From sequence record PZ452579.1: DNA of 64,000 nucleotides; one strand, 5' to 3'. Below are positions 46,668 to 53,216 of the stretch, one piece after another. The translations under genes were made by a program, and so were the position numbers. The stretch comes from a phage. A model generated the notes under the pieces. That model did not search any database and was not told the DNA's origin. It saw only the letters and a list, made by a program, of their open reading frames with translations. Each line of letters starts with the position of its first letter. Position 1 is the first letter of the stretch.

Positions 46668-47216
46668 TTAACGAGCCCATTTGATGATTTCTGTAATCAA
46701 ATCATTACGTTCGCTTGCATTAAATCCTATAACTTTGTTAGCACCATCATGATTAAGTAATTGATACGTTTGGATTTTGTTATGAATTGCAAACTCTTCA
46801 AAATGTGAAATGACTGTATTAAAACCGAATGAAGACAAAGTAATAAGGTCGTCTTCAAAACTTTCAGTCATTTCGTTACGTGTTAAAATAATTGTGAACA
46901 CATCATGGTTTTGGCAAAGACGAATATAATCCTGTTCATAAACGTCAAGAACCGAGTCCGCATCTTGTCGAATACGTCCATAAACCCAGTTACTAATATA
47001 TCCACGGTCTAACAGATAAATCTTAGTAGGGTCTAAATAATTCAACATCGTTTCGAAACAGCCAACTTCGTTTCGAGACTTAACATCGAAACGTCCATCA
47101 ACTGTTCGTTTAGGGAAATCAATCTTTACATATCTTTCACTAATTTCCATTATGTCATTAATGAAAGTTGTTTTACCAGCATTATCCGGGCCATCTACTA
47201 AAATAATTTTAGCCAT
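46668..47216 (-). CDS. P-loop kinase, thymidylate/dNMP-kinase-like
   Basis: 182 aa; Walker A ILVDGPDNAGKTT and DR(G)Y-like LLDRGYIS; occupies the T4 beta-gt position. Confidence 0.6.
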   Translation of the reverse strand: MAKIILVDGPDNAGKTTFINDIMEISERYVKIDFPKRTVDGRFDVKSRNEVGCFETMLNYLDPTKIYLLDRGYISNWVYGRIRQDADSVLDVYEQDYIRLCQNHDVFTIILTRNEMTESFEDDLITLSSFGFNTVISHFEEFAIHNKIQTYQLLNHDGANKVIGFNASERNDLITEIIKWAR

Positions 47217-47217
47217 T

Positions 47218-48117
47218 TTATTCCTCGATTACGACATCTTCGTATTTAGGTATATTATACGGCGAAGAAATTAAAGCATTAAAGTAGATGAACTCACCAA
47301 GACCTGGATGGAATACTTCTTCAGGATTTTCGAAATATTGAATCTTCGGACGTCCTTTAAGAATTTGATAGTACTCAGTTTTAGTCGGTTTAAAAATTCG
47401 AATCAGCGCTTCTTCAGGATACTTATTTCTGTCGAAGCTATTATTTGGATCGGTTATATAAAGCGGTTGACCTAATTGAATTGCACATTCAACCACTTGT
47501 TCAAAACGATAGCATGGGTCACTAATTCGAAATGGATGAAAAATACCATCTAGATGAATAGGAGCCAAATCACCTACAAGACGCTGCATGATGGAAGGAC
47601 GTATAACTTTCTGGGTTATGATAATCTTATTACCATCGGCACCAGCGTTAACCAGCACTTCCTTTTGACGTTTATTCAACACAGTTGTTTGGATTGAACG
47701 ATTAACCGACAACATGTCGGTTTTTAAGAATTCGTCAATATAAAAACGTGGTTTATTAGGGTCTGCGGTGATATTGAAATTGAATTCTACATCAAAAGCG
47801 CCGTCATATCCAGTGATATCTGTGATTAGAAAATCACAATCATAATAAGCAATTAATGAATCAACCACAAATTCATTTTCAGACCAGAAATATTTACGAG
47901 TGTTATACGCGTTATCTTTATACCATAATGGAACAAACTTAAATTCTGGGAAAAGACGTTCACATTCTTTAATATCAGATGCATTACGTGGATATGTAAT
48001 CACATCACCTGGATTAGCACGGTGCAAATGAAGTTGGAAGTTGCCATCCTTAAGGATAGCATACTGTCCAGTTTCATAAGACCGCATACTCAAGATAGGT
48101 ACGCGGAAAATAGCCAT
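47218..48117 (-). CDS. hypothetical protein, translationally coupled to gp42-like gene
   Basis: 299 aa; ATG overlaps the gp42-like stop (TAATG); no recognisable motif. Confidence 0.6.
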   Translation of the reverse strand: MAIFRVPILSMRSYETGQYAILKDGNFQLHLHRANPGDVITYPRNASDIKECERLFPEFKFVPLWYKDNAYNTRKYFWSENEFVVDSLIAYYDCDFLITDITGYDGAFDVEFNFNITADPNKPRFYIDEFLKTDMLSVNRSIQTTVLNKRQKEVLVNAGADGNKIIITQKVIRPSIMQRLVGDLAPIHLDGIFHPFRISDPCYRFEQVVECAIQLGQPLYITDPNNSFDRNKYPEEALIRIFKPTKTEYYQILKGRPKIQYFENPEEVFHPGLGEFIYFNALISSPYNIPKYEDVVIEE

Positions 48118-48833
48118 TAGTCAAGGAATCCTTTAACATAATCAAAATCACGTTCAAACACATGGGCACTTACCATGGTATGAGTATAATCACCAACTTC
48201 TACACCACATTCGTTAGCGATATAATGAAGTAATTTTCCTTGGAGATAAAAATCCAACTGCATAACAACAGCACAGTTCTGAGAACGCATATGACAGTGG
48301 GTATAAAGCTTACCATCGCGAATATAATAAGTCACTGAGTCAGTACATGGATATTCAAGTGTTTCGTCCGAATCAAGCAAAGCCTGATCAGAACTTTCTA
48401 GAATTTGGAACACAACTCTTCGAGAGTTAGGCTTCTCTTTAAGTTCTTTTAGAAGAGCTGGTAATTGGGCTGCAATGCGAGGACCATAGAAAGTGTTGAA
48501 GTTCGCAGGCAAAGCATCTGATTTTGGTTTAGAAATAAATTTAGCGACATTAGGATATGCCTTAAACGCTTCTTCTGCATCAGTACCACCAGAAATCATA
48601 AATTTCCAGAAGTCTTCGGCATATTCATAAGAGATGCGGTTAATACGTGGGTCGGTCATTTTGAATGATGATGGAGTGTCAACAACTACTGTCATAGACC
48701 CAATTTCATTACAACGTCCAATACGAGAATCAGTTACGAATTCCGGGTTTTCTAAAATTTCACGATTGACTGCTTTAAATGCGGCTTGAAAATCTGCGGC
48801 TTTGATATATTTCATTGTGTTATGTTTTCCCAT
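48117..48833 (-). CDS. 42: thymidylate-synthase-family pyrimidine hydroxymethylase (divergent gp42-like dCMP hydroxymethylase)
   Basis: 238 aa; TS-fold signatures NSRRVVFQ, EYPCTDS, HMRSQNCAVVMQLDF, GVEVGDYTHTMVSAHVF; SD GAGGT upstream. Confidence 0.7.
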   Translation of the reverse strand: MGKHNTMKYIKAADFQAAFKAVNREILENPEFVTDSRIGRCNEIGSMTVVVDTPSSFKMTDPRINRISYEYAEDFWKFMISGGTDAEEAFKAYPNVAKFISKPKSDALPANFNTFYGPRIAAQLPALLKELKEKPNSRRVVFQILESSDQALLDSDETLEYPCTDSVTYYIRDGKLYTHCHMRSQNCAVVMQLDFYLQGKLLHYIANECGVEVGDYTHTMVSAHVFERDFDYVKGFLD

Positions 48834-48874
48834 GTTTACCTCAATACAGTTATTATATACTCAATTCATAAAGC

Positions 48875-49114
48875 TTATTTGAATTTCTTGGCAATGTTGA
48901 TATAACGTAAAGCTTCAGCATCGATACTTCCAAGAACACTATGAAGAAATGCATCAGCGTAATATTCTAGTTGAACAGGTTCTTTAATCACTTTAGCCGC
49001 TTTGGTTTCAAACAGGCCCATAAGGGCCTTTTTAAGAATTTGTTCGTTAGTGTTCAGTTTCATAGTCAAAATCTCTTCATTAAGTTGGTGGTTAAAAGTT
49101 TTTCTAGAAATCAT
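48875..49114 (-). CDS. hypothetical protein
   Basis: 79-aa ORF; ATGA overlap with upstream stop. Confidence 0.45.
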   Translation of the reverse strand: MISRKTFNHQLNEEILTMKLNTNEQILKKALMGLFETKAAKVIKEPVQLEYYADAFLHSVLGSIDAEALRYINIAKKFK

Positions 49115-50286
49115 TCTGGGTACCTCAAAGCGTCGTCAGAGTTAGTTATATCAATAATAGATATAGAATTTTCTGATAACCCGTTTTTAGATAACTGACG
49201 TTTATAATATCTTTCACAATATGTACACGTCGTCCCGCAGATTTCATTAGCACAATCGAAATCTGGATGTCTGAACCACCTTTTTTCTAAAAAGCCATCT
49301 AACAAAGAGGTTTCAATATTTACTGTATGTGAAAACTCGGTCTCATTTTCAAGAGTGAAAATAGTCTCTAAAGGCTTCCACAGTTCTAACAAATTACCTT
49401 CAAACTTTTCAGAAGCGTATGCTTCAAGAACTTTCAAAATGTAGTCTGTGCTACCTGTACGTCCTGAAACTTTGAATTGAGTGATACCGATATCATTATA
49501 AAGTTTCAAATCTTGAGGACGAACAAAACGAGTTCTCAACCAGTTAAATGGGTCTGTATCACGAGCTTTAATACAGTGCTGCATTGGATATCCGTTTAAG
49601 GATTTAGCATCATCAGCTGTAACATCAGTACTATGGAAAATATAGCAAGAGTCACGATAGCTACAATGTGTTGTATACCCTTTACCAGCATTAGAACAGA
49701 ACTCATTTACAAGAACTTCAAATATTATATTGTTCTTATTGCAAAACTCTGCTGCACGCTTCAGGAAAGAAACTGAACGGTTCTTATGAATTCCGCAACA
49801 GACCTTTTTGATATTATATTGGTCATGCAAGTATTTGATTTGAGTTACAGCATCGACATGTAGAATTGTTGAAACTTCAATCTCAATGTCTTTATTGACT
49901 TCACGAACAATTTCCATAACAACAGGGTTAGCGATAGTAATACGCCATACGCCTATTGACCAAAGATACTGAACATAATCCTGAATAGCTTTCTTCTTCC
50001 ACTCAACTAGTTCTCTTTTTGAACCAGGATTTATCGTGTTGAGCGTATAGTTAAAGCAAATACCTAATTCGTTACAACGTTTAACGTAATCTTCTAACAT
50101 CTTTTTGTCAACGTCAGGAAGCCTAAAATCAGGTCTGGCTGCTACAAAAGCCATTTCTCTTGTAGAGCCGTATACTTCGTTTATCAAGCTATTAGGATAA
50201 GTTTTATTGAGCTCTACGATTTTATCAAGAAGAGCTAAATCAAAATTCGTTCCGATTTTAAAAGTATTCATTTTTTTGCATCTCAC
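49111..50286 (-). CDS. hypothetical Cys-rich protein, candidate modification enzyme
   Basis: 391 aa; C-terminal cluster CANEICGTTCTYCERYY (Cx4Cx3Cx2C), possible metal or Fe-S site. Confidence 0.6.
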   Translation of the reverse strand: MRCKKMNTFKIGTNFDLALLDKIVELNKTYPNSLINEVYGSTREMAFVAARPDFRLPDVDKKMLEDYVKRCNELGICFNYTLNTINPGSKRELVEWKKKAIQDYVQYLWSIGVWRITIANPVVMEIVREVNKDIEIEVSTILHVDAVTQIKYLHDQYNIKKVCCGIHKNRSVSFLKRAAEFCNKNNIIFEVLVNEFCSNAGKGYTTHCSYRDSCYIFHSTDVTADDAKSLNGYPMQHCIKARDTDPFNWLRTRFVRPQDLKLYNDIGITQFKVSGRTGSTDYILKVLEAYASEKFEGNLLELWKPLETIFTLENETEFSHTVNIETSLLDGFLEKRWFRHPDFDCANEICGTTCTYCERYYKRQLSKNGLSENSISIIDITNSDDALRYPE

Positions 50287-50327
50287 GTTAATTGATGCGA
50301 TGGTTTTTGCAGGTCTTACTTAAATTA

Positions 50328-50729
50328 TTATAGATTCGGTTTATATGATTTAAATGTTTCGAATTCGCCTTTATTCATAAGAGCTTTGAATTCGTCAGGA
50401 CGCATAGCTTTGTCGTCGATAATCCAATCATATACTGGTTTATGTGTTAGCAAATTATGGTACTTTAAGCCAATGTTTGCCAAGTTCTGGATCAGACTTG
50501 GGAGAATGTCAATTGCTATACGACCAGGACCTACTGACTTCATACCGCGAGCAGTGTAAAGCGTTATGGTATGCCCTGCATCATACAGGGCATTAATGGC
50601 AGACACCATTTCGACGTCTGGTTTGAAGTTCACGTAATCACGATTGTTATTCCACTCTGTTATACAATCATCGACATCAAAACAAAGATTAAGCATGTTT
50701 TCTACACGGTGCATTAGATTCGTTCCCAT
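50328..50729 (-). CDS. HAD-superfamily phosphatase-like protein
   Basis: 133 aa; motif I LCFDVDDCIT (DxDxT); small KdsC-like size. Confidence 0.6.
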   Translation of the reverse strand: MGTNLMHRVENMLNLCFDVDDCITEWNNNRDYVNFKPDVEMVSAINALYDAGHTITLYTARGMKSVGPGRIAIDILPSLIQNLANIGLKYHNLLTHKPVYDWIIDDKAMRPDEFKALMNKGEFETFKSYKPNL

Positions 50730-52399
50730 TGATGAGTGATATCGCCACCGATTGGACGATAGGAAACACCAGTTTCTTTATCAGTTAGTACCCATTTACC
50801 AGGATTTTTTGTAATCAGAGTAGCCGTTACAGGTTCTGCTACGTCATAACTAATAGAGCCGTCTTGAAGTACACGGCCCATATTACGTAATTGCTTAGTC
50901 AGAAGTTCCATACCTTTATAATATGCGGCTACCGCTTTAAGTGGATTATTCTTGAAATAACCACCTAATGCAATCCAGATAATTGCCACTGCCAAATGAT
51001 GATACTCGTTAAACGAACTCATCTTTCCATATTTGTAAACTAATGGATTGATGTTAATAGTCACATTACAAGTTGTTTCATCAATAGTAAACTGTCCCCA
51101 GGTCGGATTAGCGTTGAATTCATCATAACCTGAAACAGCATAAAGCACTTTAGCTTCATCGTACAATTTTGGCCCGTAAATCTTGGTTTCGCCAAAATAT
51201 CCACGAGGGTCGATAAACTTGACTTCGCCGTTATCAGTAATCATAGTATTACTGAAGTTCGGGTCACCATGAATAACAGAGTACTGTCCCTGAGAACGGT
51301 TATGATAACGAATAAGGTGTTCTAAAGCTTGTTTCAGCATTGGCTTCAGACGTCCAATCTTAGTGTAGTTCACATGTGTGATTTTACCAAATGAATCAAT
51401 CAATGGTTGAATGCTTTCACAACGATCAATAACTTTCGTATAGAATTCTTTAGTGAAATCACGACGAACAGTTTCAGGACTTACAAAATAAGTGTCTGTG
51501 CTGAATTTCAGTGCATCTAAAATTGCATCAACAATTTGTGGACGAGCAAGACTTGATTTGGATTTAATATATTCAAATGCCGGCTTACCTTTAATGCGTT
51601 CCATTTCAAAGTTATTTTCATTAACAGAAACTAACTGAGGAACTGAATCTGATTTCACTTTAAGATACCATGAAATCTCATCTTTCTGAAGAGCTCGGCC
51701 CTGTTCGGTTAATGCGAATTTAGTTACAGTTTCTTCACCAATTTCAACTGCATTAAAACTACGATTAAGTTCACGAACTTCATGAGCTTTTTCAAGTTTA
51801 GGCATATCACCTAAATCAATTAGATTCATAAGCTCTGATTTATTGAATGCACTGCCGTAAAGGAATTCTACGAAATCACGTCCTTTGCAGTATTCGTGAA
51901 TTTCCTCATCAGTAGAACCCATGTAGAATTCCCAGTCTTTGAACTGATAAATTCCTACAACATTACCACCTGTTGAACCTACGTTAGTGATATTTTCACC
52001 GTCGAAATTATATCGACATTCGTCACCCTTAACATAGATTGCGTTAACATTCCAAGACCATGAACCAAAATCAGGAATAATATCACACCAGTTAACAATT
52101 ACATTATGGCCGTCTAAATCTTTGTGTAATTTAGCAAGAGCATAAGCAGAACCATACGCTTCATCAACTGTACGAATAGTCACATTGAACCCTTCTTGCT
52201 CACAATAAGCTCGAACAGTTTCAGCAAATTTTGAATGAACTACTACAATAATTTCATCTGCGCCAAGGTCAGAATAAATTGTATACAAATTGCTCAGAAT
52301 AGTGTCTTGTTTATAGTTCACAAGAACTTTTGGAATATGGTGAGTAATTGGATATAAACGAGTTGCCAGTCCAGCACCAAGAATAACAGCTTTTTTCAT
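50714..52399 (-). CDS. bifunctional sugar-1-phosphate nucleotidyltransferase / APH-like (anomeric) sugar kinase
   Basis: 561 aa; N-terminal AVILGAGLATRLYPIT (RmlA-like G-x-G-x-R-L); C-terminal VIHGDPNFSNTMI and FIDPRGYFGE (APH/choline-kinase Brenner and DFG-like motifs). Confidence 0.7.
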   Translation of the reverse strand: MKKAVILGAGLATRLYPITHHIPKVLVNYKQDTILSNLYTIYSDLGADEIIVVVHSKFAETVRAYCEQEGFNVTIRTVDEAYGSAYALAKLHKDLDGHNVIVNWCDIIPDFGSWSWNVNAIYVKGDECRYNFDGENITNVGSTGGNVVGIYQFKDWEFYMGSTDEEIHEYCKGRDFVEFLYGSAFNKSELMNLIDLGDMPKLEKAHEVRELNRSFNAVEIGEETVTKFALTEQGRALQKDEISWYLKVKSDSVPQLVSVNENNFEMERIKGKPAFEYIKSKSSLARPQIVDAILDALKFSTDTYFVSPETVRRDFTKEFYTKVIDRCESIQPLIDSFGKITHVNYTKIGRLKPMLKQALEHLIRYHNRSQGQYSVIHGDPNFSNTMITDNGEVKFIDPRGYFGETKIYGPKLYDEAKVLYAVSGYDEFNANPTWGQFTIDETTCNVTININPLVYKYGKMSSFNEYHHLAVAIIWIALGGYFKNNPLKAVAAYYKGMELLTKQLRNMGRVLQDGSISYDVAEPVTATLITKNPGKWVLTDKETGVSYRPIGGDITHQWERI

Positions 52400-52440
52400 G
52401 TTGAAGTCCTCATTGGTAAGTAGGAGTATTGTACACTATT

Positions 52441-52584
52441 CTAGTTAAAGCATTCATACTTTGCTTGTAGTCCAATCATAATCCATCCAATTACAAGTGT
52501 TGGAATCATTACTGGAGCCGTTAAGCTCCAGTAGATAGTCATGACAAGCATCAATAGTAAAAGTCCTATTGTTATTGCTTTCAT
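52441..52584 (-). CDS. small membrane protein (not in ORF track)
   Basis: 47 aa MKAITIGLLLLMLVMTIYWSLTAPVMIPTLVIGWIMIGLQAKYECFN; ATGA overlap with SIS gene stop. Confidence 0.45.
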   Translation of the reverse strand: MKAITIGLLLLMLVMTIYWSLTAPVMIPTLVIGWIMIGLQAKYECFN

Positions 52585-53216
52585 TGTTCGCCTCGTAACA
52601 TGGCACCTAGTGCACCGCCTGGATGGAACTTAAGGAAATCATTAGAGGTAAATCCGCGTTCAGACGAAAGGTTGATAGCGAACGTATCGATAAGCGCTAA
52701 CAACAATGTAGTAGACATTGTCGGAGCTAAAGAGTTCTCGTCAACTTCTACCGCGATACCGGTACAGAACGTATAATCAAAAAGAGCTTCGTATTCTTGT
52801 GGAATGTCAGGGTTACAATGTAACAGAATCTGTTTAACCTGAGGACGAATCATACGAAGATGTTTAGCAACACCTATCATTTCTTCAGTCTTACCAGAAC
52901 GACTGATGTGAATCAACACATCATTAGGTGCAATAAATCCTGCGTCACCATGAGAATAATGCCCAGTGTTCAAATACATGCTAGGAATACCTAGTGAAGC
53001 AAAAGTCTCGGAAGCTTTAGTTGCGATATTAGCATTCTTACCAACACCTGTAATAATTACACGACTTTCATAATTACTCAGTCCAGGGCGACGAAGAGTT
53101 TCAAGAATAGCATTATATCGGGCAGGGTTTTGACTAATTACTTTAGCCATAGTGGCAAGAGATGAAGCTTGTTTTACGATTGCGTCAATAGCGATAGTGA
53201 TTGGTGTAGTTTTCAT
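52581..53216 (-). CDS. SIS-domain sugar-phosphate isomerase, KdsD-like arabinose-5-phosphate isomerase
   Basis: 211 aa; GVGKNANIATKASETFASLG, SHGDAGFI, ISRSGKTEE, LAPTMSTT, FHPGGALG, closely paralleling E. coli KdsD SIS-domain motifs; no CBS domains. Confidence 0.8.
   Translation of the reverse strand: MKTTPITIAIDAIVKQASSLATMAKVISQNPARYNAILETLRRPGLSNYESRVIITGVGKNANIATKASETFASLGIPSMYLNTGHYSHGDAGFIAPNDVLIHISRSGKTEEMIGVAKHLRMIRPQVKQILLHCNPDIPQEYEALFDYTFCTGIAVEVDENSLAPTMSTTLLLALIDTFAINLSSERGFTSNDFLKFHPGGALGAMLRGEQ

Follow-up and report, generated by a model that had tools for sequence, protein, structure and literature searches.

A U32-family protein in the DNA-modification island of an RB69-like phage as a candidate oxygen-independent hydroxylase of deoxypyrimidine nucleotides

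Phages of the RB69 type live in the gut, and the only known hydroxylase of their DNA-modification pathway needs O2; an O2-independent route would close this gap. Whether such a route exists is the question raised by one gene in the modification island of the phage behind sequence record PZ452579.1, of which a stretch of 64,000 nucleotides (hereafter the window) was analyzed. The source phage is a Mosigvirus, an RB69-like relative of T4, and over positions 48000–52500 the window matches upwards of 150 Escherichia and Shigella phage genomes, RB69 among them, at 98–99% identity. The gene is the homolog of RB69 gp50 (RB69p050). Its coding sequence covers positions 49114–50271 on the minus strand (stop codon at 49111–49113) and encodes a U32-family protein of 386 amino acids (aa), 98–100% identical to Mosigvirus proteins. 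We propose, with a probability of about 0.6, that gp50 is an iron-sulfur (Fe-S), prephenate-dependent, O2-independent C5 hydroxylase of a deoxypyrimidine nucleotide, here converting dCMP to 5-hydroxy-dCMP. What the analysis shows is the family, the fold, the cysteine conservation, the gene linkage and the phyletic pattern, and the proposal is built on these.

In RB69 DNA, mono- and di-arabosylated 5-hydroxycytosine replaces all cytosine (PMC13326640). The hydroxylation takes place at the dCMP level and is catalyzed by gp48, which binds flavin and incorporates 18O from O2; gp48 and a kinase alone yield 5-hydroxydeoxycytidine (5hodC) in E. coli, and the phage encodes a dCTPase (PMC13326640). Since gp48 takes its oxygen from O2, an enteric phage has an O2-dependent step in an obligatory pathway. 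In Table 1 of the same paper, gp50 appears only as a "sugar or heterocycle reductase", from a match to the structure 5D88, and the RlhA and TrhP pathways are cited merely as unrelated systems (PMC13326640). Nothing in the literature searched links gp50 or any phage U32 protein to hydroxylation or prephenate, and the Thanatos and Durham-collection papers do not discuss the gene; some recent work on such phages may already report on it.

A U32 protein with two sets of conserved cysteines

An earlier note, written from the letters alone, had described a 391-aa protein here and had recognized no known family in it. The open reading frame is real and counts 391 codons in a GTG-started reading of 49111–50286 on the minus strand, which that note had left unsaid. 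A start at the ATG at 50271 (MNTFK...) is shared by the homologs, by the PHROG alignment and by near-identical phages as annotated in GenBank (Bas46), so this codon is probably the true start and the GTG at 50286 is likely not one; residue numbers below are those of the 386-aa form. A family is found as well. Pfam Peptidase_U32 (PF01136) matched at 42.2 bits against a cutoff of 22.4, over residues 94–286 (99–291 of the 391-aa reading frame; window 49414–49992, minus strand), and PHROG 5757 matched with an E-value of 3e-267. The sole NCBIfam match of gp50 was UbiU, at 18 bits against a cutoff of 440, and a sequence search of the PDB gave no match. Structure comparison, a check that the earlier note had suggested, was positive: the domain has a triosephosphate isomerase (TIM) barrel core like the solved U32 domain 5D88 (Mk0906, the U32 "peptidase" domain of Methanopyrus kandleri), from which gp50 differs in its 11–14% identity and in a C-terminal cysteine cluster region that has no equivalent there. 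A family profile recovered 481 clusters (50% identity) at E≤1e-30 among 1.84 billion representatives, and Pfam scans of the longer members for informative fusions returned an intein and DUF2621 only. By its sequence, the gp50 group is a separate U32 subfamily.

The characterised U32 proteins of relevance here, RlhA, TrhP and UbiU/V, are tied to hydroxylation; all of them need Fe-S clusters and prephenate and are independent of O2 (PMC5727448, PMC6599085, PMC10990095). RlhA (YdcP) is required for 5-hydroxycytidine at C2501 of E. coli 23S rRNA and depends on Fe-S biogenesis and prephenate; its essential residues include Cys169, Cys176 and two C-terminal cysteines, C580 and C611 (PMC5727448). TrhP (YegQ) is required for the prephenate-dependent, O2-independent formation of 5-hydroxyuridine (ho5U34) in tRNA and is paired with the O2-dependent TrhO, anaerobes having TrhP only and facultative organisms both (PMC6599085). 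UbiU/V contain [4Fe-4S] clusters and serve O2-independent quinone hydroxylation; 18O labelling proved that the oxygen comes from prephenate, and a shared prephenate-dependent mechanism has been proposed for U32 proteins (PMC10990095). The family name, together with the labels "peptidase" and "collagenase-like protease" that most GenBank records give to the homologs, would suggest instead a genuine collagenase-like peptidase. With the relevant characterised members tied to hydroxylation and a gene context wholly concerned with nucleotide and DNA modification, this reading is scarcely credible.

The region that would hold the active site of a U32 hydroxylase contains a set of cysteines that the earlier note had overlooked, the C-terminal cluster having been taken as the cysteine feature of the protein. 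This core set consists of C158, C192, C203, C209 and C233, accompanied by E185 and E190 (window 49573–49800, minus strand), and marks a putative [4Fe-4S] and active-site region from both conservation and alignment. C192, C203 and C233 are kept in 181–182 of 182 homologs (C203 in all 182), C209 in 176 and C158 in 175, and E190 is invariant in alignment A2. The contiguous U32 signature, E-x-F-x2-G-[SA]-[LIVM]-C-x4-G-x-C, is interrupted by an insert with an invariant NEFC192, and its glutamate and two cysteines align with E185/E190, C203 and C209. In a MAFFT alignment with the E. coli paralogs, C203/C209/C233 fall on UbiU C169/C176/C193, TrhP C170/C177/C193 and RlhA C169/C176/C192, and E185/E190, C203 and C209 on the essential glutamate and two cysteines of TrhP (E162/C170/C177) and RlhA (E161/C169/C176).

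The C-terminal Cx4Cx3Cx2C cluster to which the earlier note had drawn attention is present. The string CANEICGTTCTYCERYY is found in the protein, its cysteines being C340, C345, C349 and C352 (window 49216–49254, minus strand), and CANEICGTTCTYC is the same C340/C345/C349/C352 stretch. As 4.8% of shuffles of this 13-cysteine protein give four cysteines within 13 residues, composition alone is weak evidence for a cluster. What is decisive is conservation: C340-x4-C345-x3-C349-x2-C352 is invariant in 182 of 182 distinct homologs, paralogs at 18–24% identity included, and the family-wide motif is C-x3-4-C-x2-3-C-x-[YWF]-C. The simplest reading of the cluster is a second metal or Fe-S site, which could serve to pass electrons on, by analogy with the two clusters of UbiU/UbiV, or be structurally essential, like the C-terminal cysteines of RlhA. 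Core and C-terminal sets together make nine conserved cysteines, three of them aligned with the [4Fe-4S] ligands of UbiU, TrhP and RlhA, so the earlier suggestion of a metal- or Fe-S-dependent oxidoreductase belonging to the modification island appears very probable. One representative, P0180 (699 aa), carries an intein exactly at the position of the invariant C158; as its C-terminal cluster and part of its core are gone, it may be a decayed copy.

Contrary to the earlier note, which had seen no canonical CxxxCxxC, C345-GTT-C349-TY-C352 has exactly this radical-SAM (S-adenosylmethionine) spacing, as CxxxCxYC within the four-cysteine motif and with the aromatic residue in place. A non-canonical radical-SAM-type enzyme, comparable to ThiC with its TIM barrel and C-terminal cluster, could therefore be envisaged, and radical-SAM/SPASM genes lie near some homologs. 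The fourth invariant cysteine, C340, and the variable motif spacing in the paralogs are contrary to a three-cysteine radical-SAM site. Pfam Radical_SAM gave no match and no radical-SAM structure was among the top structural matches, making such an enzyme highly improbable.

Set beside the known systems, gp50 shares with RlhA the U32 domain, the conserved glutamate and two cysteines of the motif and, as proposed here, the C5 hydroxylation of cytosine; the C-terminal C580 and C611 that RlhA needs offer a precedent for the C-terminal cluster. It differs in that RlhA is a 653-aa protein that has DUF3656 and acts on the ribosome, whereas gp50 has 386 aa, no DUF3656, a fourth core cysteine that would be located elsewhere, a compact Cx4Cx3Cx2C and, presumably, a free deoxynucleotide as substrate; the similarity between the two is marginal (10 bits). 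TrhP, in turn, acts on tRNA and has a Peptidase_U32_C domain. UbiU and UbiV are also U32 proteins, and their two clusters per working unit, one per subunit, may parallel the two cysteine sets of gp50; unlike gp50, they form a heterodimer, act on a lipid and need the carrier UbiT. The characterised U32 systems acting on pyrimidine C5 do so on RNA only, and TrhP gave the best, though weak, HMM (hidden Markov model) score, so that gp50 might be considered an RNA hydroxylase of the RlhA/TrhP type, adjusting translation in the infected cell through modified tRNA or rRNA of host or phage. Against this, the accessory domains DUF3656 of RlhA and Peptidase_U32_C of TrhP had no match in gp50 at E≤1, and family members consistently have DNA-nucleotide genes around them (dNMP kinases, dCMP deaminase, dUTPase, DNA glycosyltransferases and polymerases). 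We regard a role on RNA as quite unlikely.

Linkage to base modification, prephenate supply and oxygen

To describe the gene neighbourhoods, 66 loci with a close family member were gathered from IMG/VR, other metagenomes and GTDB genomes, and all their open reading frames were clustered; at 95% identity they form 49 groups, 9 of Straboviridae and 40 other. Every Straboviridae group has gp48, a glycosyltransferase and an AfhE-like gene. In the 40 other groups, a gp46:47-like glycosyltransferase is found in 23, an AfhE-like kinase/nucleotidyltransferase in 14 and an isomerase in 10, often with a KdsC-like phosphatase and a gp45-like kinase, while a gp48-like gene was found by BLAST and HMM in none (0/40) within ±10 kb of the U32 gene. 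Other arrangements occur as well: the U32 gene with a glycosyltransferase and no sugar-nucleotide genes (L012, L030, L034, L039, L043 and L056), beside a dCMP deaminase with no glycosyltransferase (L007 and L011), or in a series of dUTPase, thymidylate kinase, glycosyltransferase, U32 and PolIII-alpha. Taken together, the U32 gene accompanies the 5-hydroxypyrimidine and sugar machinery precisely in those loci that lack the O2-dependent hydroxylase, and repeatedly occurs with enzymes that supply prephenate.

This second association is seen in Entb_45 (Enterobacter) and LC53 (Serratia), where the gene overlapping the U32 stop codon is a type II chorismate mutase (CM_2, 40.9 and 44.6 bits, respectively; gathering threshold 27). 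This chorismate mutase is rare, matching 51 of 50,697 phage records, all of them Straboviridae of Enterobacterales or Shewanella, and among the matches listed every one adjoins a U32 gene, a gp48-like gene or both. Residues R11, R28, K39, S84 and Q88 of the E. coli enzyme (EcCM) are kept in the phage proteins. Beyond the Straboviridae, DAHP (3-deoxy-D-arabino-heptulosonate 7-phosphate) synthase and/or chorismate mutase stands beside the U32 gene in 8 of the 40 groups, and in L038, L042 and L052 the two are fused (DAHP_synth_1 and CM_2, both domains above the Pfam threshold). This looks like a reprogramming of the entry and exit of the shikimate pathway.

The fusion genes lie beside the U32 gene of uncultured phages, at L038 8411–9433, L042 8332–9387 and L052 11079–12197, and further DAHP synthase genes in the same setting at L010 9145–9891 and L027 9384–10130.

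In the window, the U32 stop codon overlaps the ATG of a 79-aa open reading frame (48875–49114, minus strand; ATGA), the two genes being translationally coupled. This small frame, whose family was seen in five Straboviridae loci, sits where most relatives have the chorismate mutase and was considered as a decayed copy of it. The idea was rejected because the frame lies between the U32 gene and the chorismate mutase where both occur; it has no CM_2 or NCBIfam match and forms a small family of its own that coexists with chorismate mutase in L020, L022 and L028.

The distribution of gp48 and of the U32 protein follows the hosts. Homologs of gp48 were found in 374 phage records, including 57 of Acinetobacter and 20 of Rhizobium, and U32 proteins in 222, with hosts that are all Enterobacterales or Shewanella; the Acinetobacter and Rhizobium phages have gp48 only. 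Similarly, Pseudomonas phage PspYZU05 (L080, Jiangsuvirus) carries the gp48, sugar-pathway and glycosyltransferase cassette with neither U32 nor chorismate mutase. In genome collections, U32-only loci stem from genomes and metagenome-assembled genomes (MAGs), Clostridia and Bacteroidales included, of Erysipelotrichales, Oscillospiraceae, Lachnospiraceae, Romboutsia, Phocaeicola, Tannerella, Gastranaerophilaceae, Woesearchaeota and similar lineages. These lineages are anaerobes. With host oxygen physiology read from taxonomy, the split is gp48 only in phages of aerobes, both genes in phages of facultative hosts and U32 only in anaerobes, which parallels TrhO and TrhP.

In RB69-like phages, gp50 would accordingly be the anaerobic counterpart of the flavin- and O2-dependent gp48. 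As with TrhP and TrhO, a U32 protein is paired within one organism with an unrelated O2-dependent enzyme, and the published distribution of that pair mirrors the phage pattern; the aerobic partner differs, being a rhodanese in TrhO and a thymidylate-synthase homolog using flavin in gp48. The pairing can likewise be compared to UbiUV/UbiIHF and to the phage's own NrdDG/NrdAB. The 5-hydroxy-dCMP synthases RB69 gp48, DLP3 gp80 and that of HY126 share with gp50 the proposed product and the cassette, in which they stand two genes away; they differ from it in their unrelated thymidylate-synthase fold and flavin/O2 chemistry and in their presence in phages of aerobes, where U32 is absent.

The same pairing might be read differently, with gp50 as a redox helper, an Fe-S electron-transfer or flavin-reducing partner of gp48 or of another enzyme. 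Two conserved cysteine clusters would suit such a role, gp48 requires reduced flavin, and the U32 and gp48 genes are adjacent in 15 of 15 Straboviridae loci. However, gp48 and the kinase suffice for 5hodC in E. coli, the 40 non-Straboviridae groups all have U32 with no gp48-like gene nearby, and the linkage to prephenate would be left unexplained. A helper function therefore seems rather unlikely.

The arabinose pathway and other genes of the island

The genes around gp50 stand on one strand in the order DNA polymerase, SIS isomerase, nucleotidyltransferase/kinase, HAD phosphatase, U32, 79-aa frame, gp48 homolog, glycosyltransferase and nucleotide kinase. With all neighbours on the same strand and the ATGA overlap downstream of U32, the earlier claim that the gene is co-operonic with the sugar pathway holds. 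Scans of 46.5–53.4 kb for promoters and terminators found sites no more numerous than in shuffled sequences. Upstream of gp50 lie the SIS-domain arabinose-5-phosphate isomerase (RB69 gp55; 52581–53216, minus strand; Pfam SIS), the bifunctional nucleotidyltransferase/kinase that makes UDP-arabinose (RB69 gp52:53, AfhE-like; 50714–52399, minus strand; Pfam NTP_transferase and weak kinase matches) and the HAD phosphatase (RB69 gp51, AfhF-like; 50328–50729, minus strand), the last assigned also from cassette membership (PMC13326640). Downstream, beyond the 79-aa frame, are the thymidylate-synthase homolog and flavin- and O2-dependent 5-hydroxy-dCMP synthase (RB69 gp48; 48117–48833, minus strand; Pfam Thymidylat_synt), the putative first DNA arabinosyltransferase, acting on the 5-hydroxyl (RB69 gp46:47; 47218–48117, minus strand; BLAST matches to L010 and L012), and a thymidylate-kinase-like nucleotide kinase (RB69 gp45; 46668–47216, minus strand; Table 1), a conserved member of the cassette (PMC13326640).

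Two of these genes, 50714–52399 (561 aa) and 47218–48117 (299 aa), both on the minus strand, are intact single reading frames in the window and are split in the RB69 reference (ORF052/053 and ORF046/047), which fits the published interpretation of these splits as sequencing errors.

This setting bears on the other suggestion of the earlier note, that the protein edits the sugar or is a second transferase, and on the published label, which would make gp50 a sugar-editing enzyme or a "sugar or heterocycle reductase" of UDP-arabinose biosynthesis. In the island its gene has the phosphatase on one side and the base-modifying genes on the other, BASEL annotates it as a "putative enzyme involved in UDP-arabinose biosynthesis", and TIM barrels are common among sugar-phosphate enzymes. 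The route from ribulose 5-phosphate (Ru5P) to UDP-arabinofuranose (UDP-Araf) is, however, covered by the isomerase, the kinase/nucleotidyltransferase and the phosphatase, two of which were reported reconstituted for phage HY126 (PMC13326640). Moreover, Acinetobacter phages produce the same arabinosyl-5-hydroxycytosine with no U32 protein, and both the cassettes lacking sugar-nucleotide genes and those with a dCMP deaminase and no glycosyltransferase sit poorly with a sugar substrate, as does the otherwise unexplained linkage to chorismate mutase. We consider a role in the sugar pathway unlikely. The base is the more likely target, because the arabinose pathway is already complete, cassettes exist without sugar-nucleotide genes and a prephenate-making partner recurs, and because gp50 belongs by fold and family with O2-independent hydroxylases, of which two act on pyrimidine C5 (PMC5727448, PMC6599085, PMC10990095); neither the sugar editor nor the second transferase is supported.

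Further cassettes were observed among the family members. In genomes and MAGs of anaerobes, a gp50-like U32 gene forms a four-gene cassette with GP88 (PF17338), a guanylate-kinase::SAM-methyltransferase fusion and a weakly AGOG/HhH-GPD-like protein, as at L076 3044–7137 (Phocaeicola faecalis) and also in L008, L009, L053, L066 and L072–L078. The pairing of U32 with the kinase::methyltransferase fusion again speaks for a nucleotide-level substrate, and the cassette could be a route to a 5-methoxy-type pyrimidine nucleotide or DNA modification. L008 (9116–15428) and L066 have a second U32 paralog, ~20% identical and with the same C-terminal four-cysteine motif, among genes for a radical-SAM/SPASM protein, an NT5C nucleotidase, a PnuC-like transporter, a deoxynucleoside kinase and a nucleoside 2-deoxyribosyltransferase. 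In large viral contigs (150–290 kb), a conserved 82-aa protein with a predicted N-terminal hydrophobic segment and no Pfam match is encoded directly upstream of U32 (L071 9648–9896; homologs in L044, L047, L049–L055 and L070).

A proposed reaction and its implications

The reaction that we propose for gp50 follows the one suggested for UbiU/V. The TIM barrel would bind the nucleotide and prephenate, and the core cluster (C192/C203/C209/C233) would take two electrons from the pyrimidine ring, possibly relayed by way of the C-terminal four-cysteine site. Decarboxylation of prephenate would hand its hydroxyl to C5 and release phenylpyruvate, and the hydroxylated product would then be phosphorylated, built into DNA and arabinosylated by the neighbouring glycosyltransferases. 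In this scheme the oxygen donor and the role of each cysteine cluster are those that we infer by comparison with the known U32 systems. The substrate might be dCMP, dUMP, a triphosphate or DNA, and dCMP is likewise our inferred choice.

Several observations weigh against a prephenate-dependent hydroxylase. In the protein itself, the canonical fourth [4Fe-4S] cysteine position is occupied by an invariant arginine, R237, so that three of the four positions are kept; judging from the alignment, C192 or C158 may complete the core cluster in its place. The family is also very distant from the E. coli paralogs, with HMM scores of 15 bits for TrhP, 10 for RlhA, 7 for UbiU and −1 for UbiV, and for RlhA, TrhP and UbiU/V direct hydroxylase activity has not yet been reconstituted in vitro (PMC10990095). 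No chorismate mutase was found in the Mosigvirus lineage or anywhere in the 64-kb window, and the prephenate for gp50 would therefore have to come from host PheA/TyrA. The E. coli Dhakavirus JS98 (L079) carries the gp48, sugar-pathway and glycosyltransferase cassette and has neither U32 nor chorismate mutase; without U32 in Dhakaviruses, the gene is dispensable for enteric phages, and in the Dhakavirus and Jiangsuvirus lineages the U32 module, with or without chorismate mutase, appears to be an optional insert between the phosphatase and gp48. Finally, few independent gains or losses underlie the phyletic pattern, oxygen physiology was taken from host taxonomy, and the search for gp48-like genes reached ±10 kb only.

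More tentatively, and at slightly less than even odds, gp50 may define a widespread phage family of prephenate-dependent, O2-independent C5 hydroxylases of deoxypyrimidine nucleotides, comprising hundreds of 50%-identity clusters. U32 hydroxylation itself is already established genetically; the novelty would lie in a U32 hydroxylase with a new class of substrate, a new biological role and an added cysteine cluster. A small soluble substrate would be a first for a U32 enzyme and would offer the first realistic handle on U32 hydroxylation in vitro, and a soluble phage enzyme using dCMP and prephenate would be an ideal test system for U32 hydroxylases.

If the proposal is correct, phages of strict anaerobes would owe their 5-hydroxypyrimidine DNA to the gp50 family alone, enterobacterial T4-like phages would have in it an anaerobic backup, and phage chorismate mutase and DAHP synthase genes would exist specifically to feed the U32 enzyme, which gives these genes a role. 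An O2-independent route would predict that phage fitness and sensitivity to host defences depend on oxygen, which bears on phage therapy. Phages of anaerobes also appear to hold a large number of DNA-modification cassettes that have yet to be studied, and those combining a kinase::methyltransferase, an HhH-like protein and U32 would hint at 5-alkoxy-pyrimidine DNA modifications in gut bacteria or their phages.

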